Below are positions 52,246 through 61,563 of a stretch of DNA of 64,000 nucleotides, in pieces. The translations under genes were made by a program, and so were the position numbers. The DNA lies in NCBI GenBank assembly GCA_963666205.1, contig OY762654.1, positions 1,568,001 to 1,632,000 on the forward strand. Reading direction: 5' to 3'. Position 1 is the stretch's first letter. The number at the start of each line of letters is the position of its first letter. This DNA is from Synergistales bacterium. GTDB taxonomy: Bacteria; Synergistota; Synergistia; Synergistales; JAFGMB01. The notes below the pieces were generated by a model. It did no database searches, had not been told where the DNA came from, and saw only the letters and a program-made list of their open reading frames with translations.

Positions 52246-52995
52246 TTATGTCGAATATATATGTTGTCTGATCTTATGCTTGATAGAACGTGAAATCCTT
52301 TTCATGGGAGAAATATTGAGAGAAGTATTGGAAGTTCCCATAAATCCTTCAAGTTCAGGAACAACTGGCGGAAGAGACCACTTTCTATCCTGGGATAATC
52401 CAAGATGGACAGCCCTTGCCAGGACGTGTTCAAAGAAAACTCCTCCTGTATCATCAATTATTTCAGAAAGGGGAAACAGGTAATTAAGGAAAAAATATCT
52501 GGAACCTGTGAAGACCTGGCTGTCAGAATATCGAAGATTCTCTCTGAAGGTACATACTGCATCAAGATCAGGATTGTTTCTCAGGAAATCCGTAAGGAGG
52601 TACATATTTTTTACAAAATATCGTCCATTAACTTTTATTAAAAAGGGGTTCCCCCACTTATCCACTATCCCTGAACGGTCAAGGATATATTTTAAAGTCA
52701 TCATCTCTCCATATCCCTTACCCCGAGAACGGGGGAAGTCTTGCCCGTAAAAACTCAGAAATTCTGTTTCACATCTTCCTCCTACTGCCGCCATTTCTTC
52801 AAATTCTAAAAGATCGGCCCCCGAATTCTCACAGAATATTATCCCGTCAAGACCATCCGTTCTCAGCCATTTGGCCAGGGCCTGTTTGTAATCCTGATAT
52901 CTCTGTTCCTTATCGGTCCTTTTCATGAAAGAAATACCCGACGGATCCACAGTAGCTGTAAGGATAAGACATACTGCCTTTTTCTCGTCATTCAT
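52246..52995 (-). CDS. Hypothetical polysaccharide-locus protein (possible glycosyltransferase)
   Basis: Soluble 249 aa with ILTAT, R...Y, ENS, GKGYGE, K.NGRY and FE motifs. Lies between the epimerase and flippase genes. Confidence 0.6.
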   Translation of the reverse strand: MNDEKKAVCLILTATVDPSGISFMKRTDKEQRYQDYKQALAKWLRTDGLDGIIFCENSGADLLEFEEMAAVGGRCETEFLSFYGQDFPRSRGKGYGEMMTLKYILDRSGIVDKWGNPFLIKVNGRYFVKNMYLLTDFLRNNPDLDAVCTFRENLRYSDSQVFTGSRYFFLNYLFPLSEIIDDTGGVFFEHVLARAVHLGLSQDRKWSLPPVVPELEGFMGTSNTSLNISPMKRISRSIKHKIRQHIYST

Positions 52996-55984: not shown

Positions 55985-56758
55985 CTACCAGACCTTCCAG
56001 AAAGCATTTCCACTGTTCCATAGCTCATTCAGGTAGTTAACGTCCCTTTCATGATCCATACAGGCCCACTGACCTCCATGACGGTAAACCGCGATTTCTC
56101 CTTTTCCTGCAAGCTCCTGAAGGGGACCTCGCTCAAAATCGCAGTTTTCATCCTCTGTGAGATAATTCATAAGTTCCATGTTGAAAACCATAAACCCTCC
56201 ATTTATAAACCCCTGGGAAGTCTGGGGTTTCTCCTCAAAACAGCATACCCTGTTCTCTTCTATCACAAGCTCACCGAACCTTGAGGGAGGATGAACTCCG
56301 GTAAGGGTAAGAATTTTTCCCTGATCCTTATGAAACCTGATTAGATCATCAATAGGAATATTACCCACTCCATCACCATATGTAAGAAGGTTGATACCGG
56401 GATCAAGAAAGGGTTCCACCTTTTTGAGCCTTCCTCCCTTAAGGGTATTGAGTCCCGTGTTGATAAGGGTGACCTCCCAGTTATTCTCTTCATGACCATT
56501 GATAAAATCCACAGAATCATTTTTCAGATCTATGGTGAAATCGTTGTTACAGCTCCTGTAATGAAGAAAATAATTCTTTATGACCTCCCCCTTGTATCCA
56601 AGACATATGATGAATTTTGTTATTCCAAAGAAGGAGTAGATCTTCATGATATGCCAAAGGATAGGTTTCTCACCAATGCAGACCATTGGCTTTGGGATTA
56701 CACTTGTTCTCTGCCCGAGTCGGGTTCCGAAGCCACCTGCCAGAATTATTACCTTCAT
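55985..56758 (-). CDS. rfbF: Glucose-1-phosphate cytidylyltransferase
   Basis: ILAGG.GTR, PKPMV, LGYKG..IK.YF, TYGDG, INGGF, W.CMD. Confidence 0.95.
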   Translation of the reverse strand: MKVIILAGGFGTRLGQRTSVIPKPMVCIGEKPILWHIMKIYSFFGITKFIICLGYKGEVIKNYFLHYRSCNNDFTIDLKNDSVDFINGHEENNWEVTLINTGLNTLKGGRLKKVEPFLDPGINLLTYGDGVGNIPIDDLIRFHKDQGKILTLTGVHPPSRFGELVIEENRVCCFEEKPQTSQGFINGGFMVFNMELMNYLTEDENCDFERGPLQELAGKGEIAVYRHGGQWACMDHERDVNYLNELWNSGNAFWKVW

Positions 56759-56928
56759 GGATAGCCCCTTTCGCAAAAAAGCAAATTGACACGGATAAGA
56801 TCCTCTTTTCACTTTTTTGCTACATAAAAGGTATTCCAGGAAAAGACTTATTAAGGAGGATGGTTCGTATATGGTTGGTCTTAAAAGTGGATATGGAAGG
56901 AGAAAAGCACTATATGTCTATGTAATGT

Positions 56929-56957
56929 ATTATAATAATAAAAAGATGATATTTCAA
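56929..56957 (-). promoter_or_regulatory. Sigma70 promoter of the rfbFGH operon
   Basis: TTGAAA (56957-56952), 17 nt, TATAAT (56934-56929). The AT-rich context lowers specificity. Confidence 0.6.
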
Positions 56958-57006
56958 CTTAATAGATAATGTGCCAGTATCCGGATATCCGCAAGGAGAA
57001 GAGATC

Positions 57007-57411
57007 ATGAAAAAAAGCAGGCTGTTATTTGGTTTCCTGTGGTTGATGGCTCTCATACTAATCGTATTGGTTTCGATCATAAAGGGTTTCAGAGAAATTC
57101 ATTTTTTATGCTTACTGGAAAACTGGATACCCTTTGCTGACAAGGCAGCACATCTTGTTACATATATGTTTATGGCTTTTACTGTTACACTTTTTTTCAA
57201 GGGTAGCATATTAATGATATATTCAGTACTGGGCCTATGCCTCCTGGGAATAGTTCTGGAGATAATCCAGTTGCACGTGGCAGGAAGAACCTTTTCCTTT
57301 CTGGACTTAGCAGCAAACATAATTGGAGTTATTATCGGGTTTTCCATGGCATGGCTTGTTATGTCTCTTTTTCAGGGAAAAACTTCCTCCGGAATGAAAA
57401 AGGGCTGTTAA
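57007..57411 (+). CDS. VanZ family membrane protein
   Basis: DK..H...Y, E..Q....GR.....D..AN..G. Confidence 0.85.
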   Translation: MKKSRLLFGFLWLMALILIVLVSIIKGFREIHFLCLLENWIPFADKAAHLVTYMFMAFTVTLFFKGSILMIYSVLGLCLLGIVLEIIQLHVAGRTFSFLDLAANIIGVIIGFSMAWLVMSLFQGKTSSGMKKGC

Positions 57412-57454
57412 TTCCGGAGGAATCAGATTCTGTTAAGGATCTTCTTCAGACGGC

Positions 57455-58984
57455 TCAAGAATCCTTCGTAATTATCTCCAAAGCCAGATCCATATCAACC
57501 TCTTCCCGCTTACCATCACCAAGCCACAGTTCGACCTTGCCCTCGGAAGCACCCCTTCCAACGACTATGGTAAAGGGCAGGTCCAGGATCTCTGCATCGG
57601 CAAACTTTACCCCACCCCGCATTTCCCTGTCATCCACCAGAACAGAAAGACCATTCTTCTCAAGGTCTTTCTCTATTTTTTGAGCCAGCTCTACTGCCTC
57701 GGCATTTTTCATGGACGGGATGGTTACAAGGGCATGGAAAGGAACTATTGAATCTGGCAGGGAGGTTTCCACTCTGAAGATTGCAGTCAGAAGGGATTCA
57801 GTCTGGACTGTCCCCTTCCAGAATGCCACCGGTGCTGGTTCATTGGACCCGTCCAGATAGGTGAGATCCTCTATCCTGCTCTTTGGACCAACCTTGAGAT
57901 AAAGGTCACAAAACTTTGTGAAATAGGTATCCTTCAATTCCCTTCCGCATTTGGGACATTTGTCTCCTGACTCAAGACTTGAAAGGTCTGCCATGGAATG
58001 GACACGAAAATCCCTTCCCCAGCAGGCACCTCTAAGATGAAAATCCTTTTTGTTTGCCCCGATAATTACATCTGAAGCTCCTTCAACACTTTTATCTGCA
58101 ACTATCAGTATATTTTCCGGCAGGCCTGCCGGGCCAAGAAAACCTTCCACATTCCCTATAGAATCAGCTATTTCCCGTGAAGTGGCAGGTCTGATATCTG
58201 GAACTCCAAGATGGGCAGCAAGTTTCGTTTCATTTACATTCCTGTCACCCCTGACAAGAACCGCAATAATTGAGCCTTCGTCAGGAGACGGGACAAATAG
58301 CATGGTCTTGACACACTTAAAGGGCTGTATATCCATAAAGCTGCAGAGATCTGCTATGGTCTTTATTCCCGGAGTGTGAACTTCTTTCATCTCCCCCGGA
58401 GAAGGGTTGGGATATTCAGTAAAAGGAATAAAGGATTCCGCCGTACCGCGCCAGCTGCAGTTGCTGTCCGAACAGGCAAGGCCCTTCTCTGAACGGTAAT
58501 AACCTTTGTCGGATCTTACTCCAAGGACATACCTCTGCCCACTTACGGAAACATCTTTCCACGAAAAAAGTTGTATCCCGAGACCTGTAACGAGAATCTC
58601 CATTTTTTCCCAGAAATTCTTTAATTCTTCCTCGGCAGTATAGAAGTCATGGGAATAACCTGCCAGCAATATTTCACTGTTTTTCTCTTCAAAAAGGATA
58701 AAAGGAAGATGACGGTAACTCTGGATAACTCCCCTTGCTATTGAAAGACCTCCATCATAAGCAAGGGAGGAACTGACTGGTTGAAATGACATGTTCATAA
58801 GTTTTTCCCTTAAAAAATCATGAAGTCTGCCCCTTATCATCACTCCCATCGGCAGGAGAGAAAGCCGGTTGCCATCACTTGAGAAAGAAGCATATCCCCT
58901 TCGAATCATGGACGTAAGGCCTGGATCTGTAACATGGGCAGGATTTTCCTTCATGGTAGGAAGAAGGAGAGAAGATATTTTCAT
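57455..58984 (-). CDS. Prolyl-tRNA synthetase paralog with degenerate catalytic domain and intact INS (YbaK-like) editing and anticodon-binding domains
   Basis: ProRS N-terminus (PT.KE.P, LP.G), INS (TPGIKTI, VKT, RGD..VNE.KL, GFLGP, GAN..D.H), anticodon domain (DDR...G.KFADA). Class II motifs 2 and 3 are not recognisable. Confidence 0.85.
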   Translation of the reverse strand: MKISSLLLPTMKENPAHVTDPGLTSMIRRGYASFSSDGNRLSLLPMGVMIRGRLHDFLREKLMNMSFQPVSSSLAYDGGLSIARGVIQSYRHLPFILFEEKNSEILLAGYSHDFYTAEEELKNFWEKMEILVTGLGIQLFSWKDVSVSGQRYVLGVRSDKGYYRSEKGLACSDSNCSWRGTAESFIPFTEYPNPSPGEMKEVHTPGIKTIADLCSFMDIQPFKCVKTMLFVPSPDEGSIIAVLVRGDRNVNETKLAAHLGVPDIRPATSREIADSIGNVEGFLGPAGLPENILIVADKSVEGASDVIIGANKKDFHLRGACWGRDFRVHSMADLSSLESGDKCPKCGRELKDTYFTKFCDLYLKVGPKSRIEDLTYLDGSNEPAPVAFWKGTVQTESLLTAIFRVETSLPDSIVPFHALVTIPSMKNAEAVELAQKIEKDLEKNGLSVLVDDREMRGGVKFADAEILDLPFTIVVGRGASEGKVELWLGDGKREEVDMDLALEIITKDS

Positions 58985-59203
58985 TTTGATCAACCTTTCA
59001 ATCTGGAATTACGCATAATAACGTGATTCAGAACAACTCAGACATAAACATTTTTATTATAGATCAGCGCAGAGAATAATCAGATCATATTTTAACTTAG
59101 TCAATAATGGTCAGTTATTACACACACTTTTTCGGTAGATTTACTTTAAATGTCATATAACAATCTCAAAAATTTCAGAATATATTTATGTTTCAGGGGT
59201 AAT

Positions 59204-59236
59204 AAAAAACAGGCCTATTTTCCAGGCCTGTTTTTT
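59204..59236. terminator. Bidirectional-type intrinsic terminator downstream of usp
   Basis: AAAAAACAGGCCT-ATTTTCC-AGGCCTGTTTTTT. Confidence 0.8.
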
Positions 59237-59369
59237 GTAAATCGGACAATAATTATTATGGAATCAGGATATTCTGATGTCTATGTGTTTCCGGACCTCA
59301 TATTCCCGGTCATTTTCTGAAGATTTAATGGCTTAAAATCCAAAATCAAGATTCAAAAATCCCCAATTG

Positions 59370-59831
59370 TTACAGTGGCATTTCCCCCGGCCTGTAAATA
59401 AGGACCGAACAGGAGGCATATCTGGCTATATTGGTAGTAGTGCTTCCTACGAACATCTGCTTTATGGGACTGTCGTCACGGTATCCTGCAATGATGAGGG
59501 AATATTTACCTTCTTTAGACTTTTTGATAACCTCATCGGCCGGGTTGCCCTCTTCAATAAAAAGCTGATGCTCATGTTCAGGTGCACCGGGATATTTTGT
59601 TTCGGCATCTTCAAGCCATTTCTTGACTGTAAATTTATAGGCTTTTATCGCATCCTTGAGCACATCTTCGGGGATCCAGTTTTTATATCCCTTCCAGGGT
59701 GTTGAGGGGTGCTCAAGAACATGAATAAAATCGAGTTGAAGATCCATTTCATGTGCTATCTTGTGGCTATAGGCCACAAGATCCTTTGAGAGGTCACTAA
59801 CACCAATGGCTACAAGCACTTTTCCAGGCAT
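59370..59831 (-). CDS. Universal stress protein
   Basis: KVLVA, HV, G.PA..I, GS....I...A.CSVL. Confidence 0.88.
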   Translation of the reverse strand: MPGKVLVAIGVSDLSKDLVAYSHKIAHEMDLQLDFIHVLEHPSTPWKGYKNWIPEDVLKDAIKAYKFTVKKWLEDAETKYPGAPEHEHQLFIEEGNPADEVIKKSKEGKYSLIIAGYRDDSPIKQMFVGSTTTNIARYASCSVLIYRPGEMPL

Positions 59832-60040
59832 TTATACTCCTCCTTAAATAAATTAATGAGAAAAATATTCCCGAACAAACTAAATCATTGATTAAATAGT
59901 ATACCAGTTCAGAAAGATTATTGTTATTGAGCGATCCCATTATGAAAAATTTCGATTGTCTGAAAGATCGGGACTTTTCACCATATTTTTCTACTGAAAA
60001 TTGTTATACAAGAATTTATTAATAAGATCTTTTCATGTAG

Positions 60041-60076
60041 TAATAAAGGGGGAGGCTATAGCCTCCCCCTTTATTA
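60041..60076. terminator. Perfect 36-bp palindrome/terminator after the hypothetical gene
   Basis: TAATAAAGGGGGAGGCTA|TAGCCTCCCCCTTTATTA. Confidence 0.75.
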
Positions 60077-60090
60077 TGTTTATAACACTA

Positions 60091-60873
60091 TTATGGTATG
60101 GGAAAGTAAATAACGTGGGATCCGTCATCTCTTTCTCGATCGATTACCCTGTAGATTCTGCCCCTGATCCTGTCCCATGCGTAATTACCCATATTCACGA
60201 TCTGACCTGAACCATTAAGAAAGGTGAAGTTCCTGCTTACTGCCCAGTTATTTCCAACATATCCTCTAACAGGTACAGCAAGAGGAAGCTTTCCCTTAAC
60301 TTCTGGCTCGGTCCAGTTTCCAATAACAGGATTCATTTCCTTATCCTTAAGCATATTGATTATCGAAAGATATTCAGCAGGAGCTGTTTTCATAAAGTGG
60401 TACCTTGACCTTGACGACCGGGAAAGGTCGTTTAAAAAATTTCTTGCAAGCCATGCTGAACCTTTCCTGTCCATCCGGACCAGCTCAAGGGATGCAACAT
60501 ATACCGCATCTATAGCTGCAAGAGGTTTTGGAATTATTCCCGGATACCAGAAACCTTCAACATCGTTCCATCTTCTTATATCCGAATCAGGATATAGCTC
60601 ATCGATCAATTTGATAGCGTTAGCAGCTCTTTTTTCTGGATCTATACTTTCATTCCAGAGAGTTCTCCATAGATCATAACCTGTCTTTTTATCAGCCTTG
60701 AGTTTCAGTTCCCTTAAAAGTTCCCCGGCATTTTTTTCCCAGTTTGAAGAATTAAGGTAACTTGAATAAAGCTCATCGAAAGATTTTTCAGAAGCATTTA
60801 TTCGCGGTACATAAAGAGAAAATAGAAGAGAAAATGCAAGGAAATAAAAGATTATTTTTTTTAAATACTTCAT
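60091..60873 (-). CDS. Hypothetical exported protein
   Basis: Signal peptide MKYLKKIIFYFLAFSLLFSL..INA. SD GAGGTG. Confidence 0.7.
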   Translation of the reverse strand: MKYLKKIIFYFLAFSLLFSLYVPRINASEKSFDELYSSYLNSSNWEKNAGELLRELKLKADKKTGYDLWRTLWNESIDPEKRAANAIKLIDELYPDSDIRRWNDVEGFWYPGIIPKPLAAIDAVYVASLELVRMDRKGSAWLARNFLNDLSRSSRSRYHFMKTAPAEYLSIINMLKDKEMNPVIGNWTEPEVKGKLPLAVPVRGYVGNNWAVSRNFTFLNGSGQIVNMGNYAWDRIRGRIYRVIDRERDDGSHVIYFPIP

Positions 60874-61062
60874 TTTTCTCACCTCACAATTTTTTTTTGC
60901 CATTAATGGATTATGGGACATAGATGAAAGTTTTAAAAGTTAGAAGATATAAACAATAATTATAATAATTATAACTTTTATTACCTATATGTAAAGAACA
61001 CTTATACCTGAATAAAACCGGTGGGGAAATAATATAACTGTTTAATTGGTAAAATAGATGAA

Positions 61063-61563
61063 TTAAGAGGGTTTTCTGCTGTTTTCGTCAGATCCGAACC
61101 TTTTTCTGTATGTAGCCTTCAGATTTGCAAGGGCCCTGGCAAGTTTTTCATCATCCAGCCTTTTTTCCATATATTCGAGTTCCCTTTTAACATCCTGAGG
61201 GGAAGGGTTTATTCTTATAGTATTCCGGGTCTGTTGAGATGAAGAGTTTTTTCTTTCCTGCCGTCCAACGTAAACCTTAACACCGGATATATCAAGGTCC
61301 CATATTGATTTTATCCTCTCTCTGACTGTACCAGCCCTCATTTTTACCTGCTGTGCAACAGAAGAGCTTGAAGCAATAACTACAAGATGATCTTCTTCCA
61401 GACCTGAAACACTGCTTTTTCCAGCAAGAAGGGGACCAACAACCTCGATCCAGTTCTGACTTATTTCAGAAATCTTCATTCTCTTTAACACCTTCGGATG
61501 AAGAGCACCTGTTATAAGTCCCGAAAGCTTCCTTGGTCTACTCCTGAACCTTTTCTTCGCCAT
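61063..61563 (-). CDS. DUF721 / DciA-like protein
   Basis: Basic N-terminus, W.EVVG..LA, L.V.A.SS..AQ, I.V.VG. Confidence 0.65.
   Translation of the reverse strand: MAKKRFRSRPRKLSGLITGALHPKVLKRMKISEISQNWIEVVGPLLAGKSSVSGLEEDHLVVIASSSSVAQQVKMRAGTVRERIKSIWDLDISGVKVYVGRQERKNSSSQQTRNTIRINPSPQDVKRELEYMEKRLDDEKLARALANLKATYRKRFGSDENSRKPS

Follow-up and report, generated by a model that had tools for sequence, protein, structure and literature searches.

What becomes of an aminoacyl-tRNA synthetase gene whose charging site has been destroyed, when the remaining parts of the protein still look orderly? The question is raised by a locus in a Synergistales bacterium (assembly GCA_963666205.1), within a stretch of 64,000 nucleotides (contig OY762654.1, positions 1,568,001 to 1,632,000, here called the window). 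The window gene encodes a relative of bacterial-type prolyl-tRNA synthetase (ProRS), and an earlier note on this DNA, made from the letters alone, had described it as a ProRS without a synthetase active site that retained the inserted editing domain (INS) and the anticodon-binding domain (ABD). The note had proposed an anticodon-guided trans-editing factor or a regulatory or heterodimer partner, as opposed to a decaying pseudogene. The patterns reported below make it probable, at roughly 60%, that this dead ProRS, its aminoacylation site destroyed, combines a homodimeric scaffold with INS and ABD and serves as a trans-editing deacylase that, guided by the anticodon, clears mischarged tRNAPro, probably Ala-tRNAPro.

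Results

Loss of the charging site and retention of the other domains

The ORF list and translation give an intact open reading frame (ORF) of 509 aa on the minus strand, with its ATG at 58984 and its stop at 57455-57457. An upstream in-frame TTG at 58993 would give an alternative protein of 512 aa, but all relatives begin at the ATG instead. The window protein was aligned with 14 relatives and 7 canonical ProRS (alignment A1, 22 rows). It is colinear with bacterial-type ProRS, so that the earlier reading of an intact, colinear frame of about 509 aa was borne out, and both of the losses described there are clean deletions. A gap of about 36 columns takes out the SGRW...PTHEE proline-binding segment, and a second of about 18 columns takes out motif 2, leaving 'LFEEKNS...EILLAGYS'. 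Two replacements also stand where the note had placed them, TKFCDLYL at the EVGHIF segment and FWKGTVQTES at motif 3. The features said to be kept are likewise all present, i.e. CVKTML with its conserved lysine (K226), the GFLGP loop and GAN..DFH (H316) in INS, and the signature DDREMRGGVKFADAE in the ABD.

Retention was scored over two sets of alignment columns. A catalytic score was taken from 13 columns whose conservation among 113 canonical ProRS is at least 94%; 110 of these proteins keep all 13, and the window protein keeps none (0/13). Over the canonical-invariant columns, defined as those at least 90% identical among the same 113, its retention is 19/90 for the N-terminal core and 7/26 for the C-terminal core, but 21/21 for INS and 18/25 for the ABD; the corresponding values in three canonical proteins from outside the 113 are 81-85/90, 24/26, 19-20/21 and 21-24/25. 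This domain-selective retention is far beyond chance. By PDB sequence match K226 aligns with K279 of the Enterococcus faecalis ProRS 2j3l, in a numbering that we take to be common to the Escherichia coli and E. faecalis enzymes. The retained residues I210 and L213 align with I263 and V266 of 2j3l, which presumably form the alanine-sized pocket.

Profile searches divide the protein in the same way. Pfam tRNA_edit (PF04073) matches residues 204-324 (82.5 bits against a cut-off of 25.5, E 3e-23) and HGTP_anticodon (PF03129) residues 420-506 (47.1 bits against 21, E 3e-12), and there was no Pfam match to the class II core family tRNA-synt_2b (PF00587) in the window protein. Because its scores lie far under the cut-offs of both NCBIfam bacterial proS models (212.3 vs 558 bits for NF006625 and 119.6 vs 306.7 bits for TIGR00409) and the catalytic residues are gone, the protein cannot be filed as a ProRS.

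Predicted structure and dimer

The AlphaFold2 model of the window protein, made from the 22-row alignment, is confident (pLDDT 89.8, pTM 0.83), and its best Foldseek matches are to the E. faecalis ProRS structures 2j3l and 2j3m over the whole length (TM 0.74-0.77, query). Foldseek and the colinear alignment agree that fold and domain order, core-INS-core-ABD, are shared with bacterial-type ProRS, as the earlier note's account of the domains would lead one to expect. For a homodimer of residues 1-500 the prediction score was 0.77, whereas the best of three controls reached 0.00; contacts agreed between runs to at least 97%, and partner pLDDT was at least 85. Of proteins with solved structures, 20 of 30 that are same-chain pairs attain the mark, compared with 1 of 23 that are single chains. 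In the prediction the two chains meet at residues 5-9, 33-51, 63-86 and 100-103, on the motif-1 side of the old core. Since ProRS dimers are among the solved structures, the score attests likeness to these and may reflect the predictor's having learned them. A scaffold role would explain continued selection on the catalytic remnants.

Four cysteines, C171, C176, C343 and C346 (about 58457-58474 and 57947-57958), are invariant across all 22 aligned dead and canonical ProRS. They form a CxxxxC and a CPxC pair, one on either side of the INS insertion, and resemble a zinc site where INS joins the core, retained after catalytic death.

The working ProRS and other INS-superfamily genes of the genome

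The genome (G000), 100% complete, consists of a single contig of 2.95 Mb. Its single ProRS over a curated cut-off is of the archaeal/eukaryote type (C1:693446-694867; TIGR00408, 553 bits vs 437), and PF04073 gave no match on that protein. A functional proS elsewhere in the genome was thus found, as the earlier note had anticipated, and it is without INS. Three further INS-superfamily genes are separate from the dead ProRS, namely a YbaK over its cut-off (172 vs 153 bits), a ProXp-ala-like protein (match to 5vxb, E 7e-22) and a TTHA1699/ProXp-x-like protein (match to 2cx5, E 3e-27). With two dead ProRS copies, the intact INS-superfamily genes number five. All three tRNAPro genes (UGG, CGG and GGG) have C1:G72, A73 and G35-G37. 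An INS/YbaK-like fragment at G000:C1:2486487-2486819 has five in-frame stops (2 TAG, 3 TAA) and is a true pseudogene, from which it may be seen that dead genes in this genome do decay.

Homologues, selection and transcription

When 5.8 billion proteins were searched, the 120 matches listed comprised 7 close homologues of the window protein (507-509 aa, 65-98% identical, with only the two Pfam domains) and 113 canonical ProRS at about 25-37% identity. The copy in a congener (G001) is 79% identical in amino acids. Between G000 and G001 the ratio of nonsynonymous to synonymous substitution rates (dN/dS) of the window gene is 0.21 overall (N-terminal core 0.26, INS 0.19, C-terminal core 0.25, ABD 0.08), compared with 0.22 for the second dead ProRS copy and 0.06 for the archaeal-type ProRS, all figures being from one genome pair and indicative only, with dS uneven along the window gene (0.28 to 1.9). 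In the eight sequences of the window-type copy, 62% of INS columns and 54% of ABD columns are invariant, as are 44% and 40% of those in the core remnants. Selection on the gene is purifying. Orthologues are present and intact, with the family found in 45 of 81 genomes of the order, and dN/dS below 0.3 in all four parts of the gene speaks against neutral drift; on both counts the earlier note's view of the gene held.

The unevenness of dS takes the form of 0.28 in INS and 1.9 in the ABD against the G001 copy. In RNA-library run X1, a contig over 57422-58037 carries 22 differences and contigs over 58060-59006 carry none. Together these observations suggest recombination within the window gene between strains. 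RNA-library contigs from three studies fall on the gene, with run X1 covering 57422-59006, and are compatible with its transcription, DNA carry-over being possible; the parts free of contigs, namely 59047-59153 in every run and the greater part of the gene in runs X3 and X6, carry no meaning.

A dead-ProRS clade in Synergistales, with two old copies

Across 81 Synergistales genomes the archaeal-type ProRS model is over its cut-off in 76 and the bacterial model in none. The dead-ProRS profile matches in 45 (38 of 69 high-quality genomes, 19 of 32 genera), and the matches are without internal stops, with the exception of an in-frame TAG in genome G016. Both deletions are common to all 15 family rows of A1, and none of the 50 Synergistales sequences examined retains more than 2 of the 13 catalytic residues. 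The Synergistales proteins form a clade apart from canonical ProRS (74 leaves, support 100) in a FastTree tree of 259 rows, from which proteins under 400 aa and three duplicate loci were excluded, and again in an IQ-TREE quick tree of 45 rows (35 rows in the clade, SH-aLRT 100). Most simply read, the catalytic site was lost before the radiation of the order, once an archaeal-type ProRS had taken over charging.

Two dead-ProRS copies occur only in G000, G001 and a third genome, G071. Copy B of G000 (C1:1001059-1002657, locus L001/L131; 507 aa from a conserved ATG) is 32% identical to the window copy, hereafter copy A. Copy B nests with relatives of its own family and the copy-A clade (7 rows, SH-aLRT 100) is basal in the whole clade. 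An approximately unbiased (AU) test rejected A and B as one clade (log-likelihood difference 58, p 3.4e-6; 24 rows, LG+G4), for a group chosen after the first tree was seen. Given this rejection and its basal position, copy A is either an old paralogue or the product of a transfer within the order; a recent duplication does not account for it. Between G000 and G001 copy B is 92% identical and copy A 79%, and of the 25 canonical-invariant ABD positions copy A keeps 18 and copy B 10. One large subclade of the family stands at 8-13/25. Family members of 409-445 aa without any ABD (P0137 and relatives; genomes G059 and G070) were also seen, one 90%-identity cluster having 83 members, and the ABD-less form is common in some Synergistaceae.

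The distributions of dead ProRS and ProXp-ala-like genes over the 81 genomes are partly complementary: 37 genomes have dead ProRS only, 17 ProXp-ala only, 8 both and 19 neither, and four families (f5, f6, f7 and f9) have dead ProRS only and no ProXp-ala-like gene. The distribution gives partial support to the trans-editing proposal, relatives not being independent.

Degenerate ProRS beyond the order

The family profile was searched against 1.84 billion representatives, and the best 149 (50%-identity representatives) were scanned with Pfam. Among these best 149, tRNA_edit was present in 148, the ABD in 132 and a detectable class II core in 56, leaving 93 without; 109 kept at most 4 of the 13 catalytic columns, 28 kept 5-10 and 12 kept at least 11. 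By the 93 and the 109, the dead-ProRS family is a large one. In the 259-row tree, degenerate proteins lie scattered among the canonical ProRS of other lineages, where the class labels 'degenerate' and 'partial' come from regular expressions and are approximate, at least one protein (L104) having been misjudged as degenerate. Two Anaerolineae genomes have an archaeal-type ProRS (582 and 581 bits) together with a sub-threshold bacterial-type one (276 and 207 bits). A dead ProRS alongside an archaeal-type ProRS thus seems to recur outside Synergistales, for example in Anaerolineae. L104 belongs to genome G083, which has an archaeal-type ProRS (555 bits) and in L104 a bacterial-type ProRS still over its cut-off (625 bits). 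It has FRDH for FRDE and GSYQIG for GxYGIG, keeps 10 of the 13 key residues and may represent an early stage of the same decay.

Discussion

Proposed function

The proposal of an anticodon-guided trans-editing factor stands as regards selective domain retention, selection on the gene and a working ProRS without INS; the deacylase activity, the alanine substrate and action in trans are what we infer from these. According to excerpts of PMC3973320, INS cannot recognize tRNA by itself, and Ala-tRNAPro editing in the E. coli enzyme needs the ABD, which reads G35/G36. It is on this published dependence that the term anticodon-guided rests, and it follows that INS, ABD and scaffold together would be the minimal unit for INS-type editing. 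The K279A mutant is described in the same excerpts as editing-dead. ProXp-ala is reported to read G72/A73 and YbaK to have no tRNA specificity (PMC3973320 and PMC11295145, in excerpt).

A history and a mechanism may be outlined on this basis. A Synergistales ancestor would have swapped its bacterial ProRS for the archaeal type, the displaced gene surviving as a proofreader, and the window copy would be a second, anciently diverged paralogue of that relic. The archaeal-type ProRS, without an editing domain, would release some Ala-tRNAPro. The dead ProRS would bind this tRNAPro through its ABD at G35/G36 and set the 3' end in the INS pocket, where the wrong amino acid would be hydrolysed and the tRNAPro freed for recharging.

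Several observations weigh against the trans-editing deacylase. Editing of Ala-tRNAPro may already be covered in G000 by the ProXp-ala-like protein, YbaK, the ProXp-x-like protein and the second dead ProRS, and the presence of the ProXp-ala-like gene and of that second copy makes a simple story in which the dead ProRS fills in for a missing INS incomplete. Across the order, the 19 of 81 genomes with neither gene and the 8 with both mean that the link is neither obligate nor exclusive. Selection on the dead ProRS is weaker than on the working ProRS (dN/dS 0.21 vs 0.06, in a single genome pair). The motif-2 loop of ProRS contacts the acceptor end; in the window protein this loop is deleted, and delivery of the 3' end to INS is assumed. 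Finally, the ABD is changed at 7 of 25 positions in the window copy, and since it is decayed or absent in other members, the core function of the family cannot always need the anticodon.

Alternative explanations

The crowding of INS-superfamily genes could be explained if the protein were a proofreader with another job, removing serine, cysteine or 2-aminobutyrate from tRNAPro or serving a subset of tRNAs, with the five genes dividing the labour; the division might also be one of regulatory regime. Five intact genes would hardly be maintained through simple redundancy, the divergence of copies A and B is ancient (AU p 3.4e-6) and their ABDs are unlike (18 vs 10/25), and relaxed amino-acid specificity is noted for the superfamily in excerpts of PMC11295145. 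However, INS is complete at 21/21 with I210 and L213 kept, there is no sequence sign of a changed pocket, and we regard such a reassignment as unlikely, although it deserves to be kept in mind. Distinctly unlikely, in our judgement, is a non-hydrolytic tRNAPro binder or regulator that senses or sequesters tRNAPro or is tied to reductive amino-acid fermentation of the proline/glycine type. That idea draws on copy B, which is coupled to grdX in a reductase operon, and on the reductase genes at 7 of 41 Synergistales loci, but a proofreader too would need co-expression with a reductase that depletes amino acids. The window copy moreover has no reductase neighbours and keeps its own synteny in G001, and a full set of INS catalytic positions would not be expected of a mere binder.

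A protein acting as partner or regulator of the working ProRS, through a heterodimer or complex, would have a precedent in YbaK, which reportedly depends on forming a ternary complex with ProRS (PMC3973320, in excerpt). This is very improbable here: the working ProRS is archaeal-type, of another lineage than the bacterial-type relic, and the model supports a homodimer through the motif-1 interface. The remaining explanation, a decaying pseudogene or neutral relic, is already contradicted and scarcely credible, even though the original activity is lost, copy A has changed faster than copy B (79% vs 92% identity between G000 and G001) and a family member has been lost or broken in some lineages, as with the in-frame TAG of G016. 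Eight copy-A sequences, as little as 65% identical, have intact ORFs, the family forms a single clade that is unbroken in many families of the order, and the fold is predicted with confidence. With 21/21 INS and 18/25 ABD columns set against 0/13 catalytic ones, a dN/dS of 0.21 and intact homologues, the contrast that the earlier note drew between selective retention and a decaying pseudogene was upheld.

A wider idea, which extends the trans-editing deacylase beyond this locus, can be offered only tentatively and is rather more apt to fail than to hold. Dead ProRS might be a recurrent, so far undescribed multidomain class of anticodon-guided trans-editing enzymes that appears each time bacteria take on an archaeal-type ProRS without INS, and would have done so separately in Synergistales, Anaerolineae and other lineages. 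In the present genus the copies would then have split roles, A with a near-canonical ABD and its own promoter and B with a decayed ABD in a selenoprotein amino-acid-reductase operon, coupling proofreading of proline codons to amino-acid fermentation.

Relation to known systems

The closest known protein in structure is E. faecalis ProRS (2J3L/2J3M; best PDB sequence match, E 1e-39), with which the window protein shares the class II core, the inserted INS and the C-terminal ABD in colinear order and, in prediction, dimerization through the N-terminal region. It differs in keeping 0/13 catalytic columns, in its deleted proline-binding loop and motif 2 and in its replaced motif 3. ProXp-ala, YbaK and ProXp-x belong to the same PF04073 hydrolase fold family, and the job of ProXp-ala, clearing Ala-tRNAPro for an INS-less ProRS, is the one proposed here; these proteins, however, are single-domain and of about 150-180 aa, whereas the window protein has 509 aa with an ABD and a core remnant as dimer scaffold. 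Its INS groups with the cis-INS of ProRS, unlike the single-domain trans-editing factors. In excerpts of a 2024 review (PMC11295145) the INS superfamily consists of ProRS-INS and eight families, whose members are single-domain except for the INS domain; with that exception the review agrees with the earlier note that known trans-editors are single-domain. The ProRS classes given for AARS Online are only ProRS-A, ProRS-B and ProRS-M (PMC11580382, in excerpt).

The nearest concept is the crenarchaeal ThrRS-ed, drawn with a hydrolytic domain and an ABD in a figure legend of PMC11295145. With ThrRS-ed, too, charging and proofreading are split over two genes and the proofreader keeps the synthetase's ABD, but the synthetase family is another, the editing fold is unrelated and the system is archaeal; furthermore the present case pairs a native relic with a foreign-type replacement, not halves of one ancestor. 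HisZ and the HisRS-like domain of GCN2 are class II synthetase scaffolds kept after loss of aminoacylation, as regulators or sensors. The window protein differs from them in what appears from its residues to be a complete second, hydrolytic site, and it belongs partly with the trans-editing factors and partly with the dead synthetase paralogues. Full-text literature searches, which did not reach most subscription journals or supplements, turned up no account of a ProRS that is catalytically dead and still has INS and ABD.

In the accepted view, the trans-editors of tRNAPro are small single-domain proteins, which recognize either the acceptor stem or no part of the tRNA. If the trans-editing deacylase is real, it would add a third way, in which a proofreader acting in trans puts the parent enzyme's anticodon reading to new use, and would offer a clear example of the fate of a native synthetase after foreign displacement, stripped to its second active site and not lost. 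Dead-ProRS genes are annotated 'prolyl-tRNA synthetase' or 'hypothetical protein', so that ProRS counts and predictions of fidelity and drug targets made from genomes are wrong for these lineages.

Features of the locus and genomic context

Table 1. Layout of the copy-A gene and its upstream region, in window coordinates.
Feature	Coordinates	Strand	Basis
Complete dead-ProRS gene (copy A), 509 codons + stop	57455..58984	-	ORF/translation, 7 close homologues, syntenic copy in G001
Residues 1-190, N-terminal half of class II core, reduced in size; motif-1 region retained, proline-binding loop and motif 2 deleted; predicted dimer interface	58415..58984	-	22-row alignment
Residues 191-335, INS editing domain: K226, GFLGP loop, GAN..H316	57980..58414	-	Pfam tRNA_edit
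Residues 336-410, C-terminal core half; CPKCG cysteine pair retained, EVGHIF segment and motif 3 replaced	57755..57979	-	22-row alignment
Residues 411-509, class IIa anticodon-binding domain (ABD)	57458..57754	-	Pfam HGTP_anticodon
Upstream intergenic region, probably with the gene's own promoter	58985..59369	-	Promoter-like sites (consensus matches only)

The window copy stands alone behind an intergenic region of 385 nt, in which promoter-like sites lie at 59283-59255 and 59104-59076 (consensus matches only). Rfam at E<=1 found no T-box or other known RNA element in this region. A regulatory RNA for the gene was sought more widely, over 56500-61500 at the same threshold, and was rejected; four sub-threshold matches at about 59999-60199 were obtained, none upstream of the gene and none a T-box. 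The neighbours include VanZ, Usp, DciA, MnmG and sugar-nucleotide enzymes, and in the closest relative (G001) the gene order is kept for Usp, VanZ, a nucleotidyltransferase and an ORF of 276 aa. This last ORF (window 60091-60921, minus strand) has an N-terminus resembling a signal peptide and no Pfam match at E<=1e-5; its counterpart next to copy A in the close relative is 38% identical. A second ORF, of 249 aa (window 52246-52995, minus strand), likewise has no Pfam family at E<=1e-5.

Copy B is translationally coupled to grdX by a 4-nt overlap, in an operon with the order GrdG/E-like, selenoprotein B-family (with selenocysteine, Sec, at position 349), GrdA-like (Sec), GrdX, dead ProRS and Na+ transporter. 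In tblastn searches with the copy-B neighbours, reductase genes adjoined a family member at 7 of 41 Synergistales loci. A reductase-operon linkage for the window copy was considered and rejected, these neighbours not lying beside the copy-A locus of a close relative. In the copy-B operon at L131:8000-9951 (minus strand; G000:C1:1002999-1004950), reading TGA as Sec joins an ORF of 348 aa of the selenoprotein-B family into one of 436 aa with a 'TSTUGTCTRC' site, and it also opens the next, GrdA-like ORF, with 'CFVUTAAGAMD'. The reductase subunits beside copy B score under the sarcosine, glycine and betaine cut-offs.

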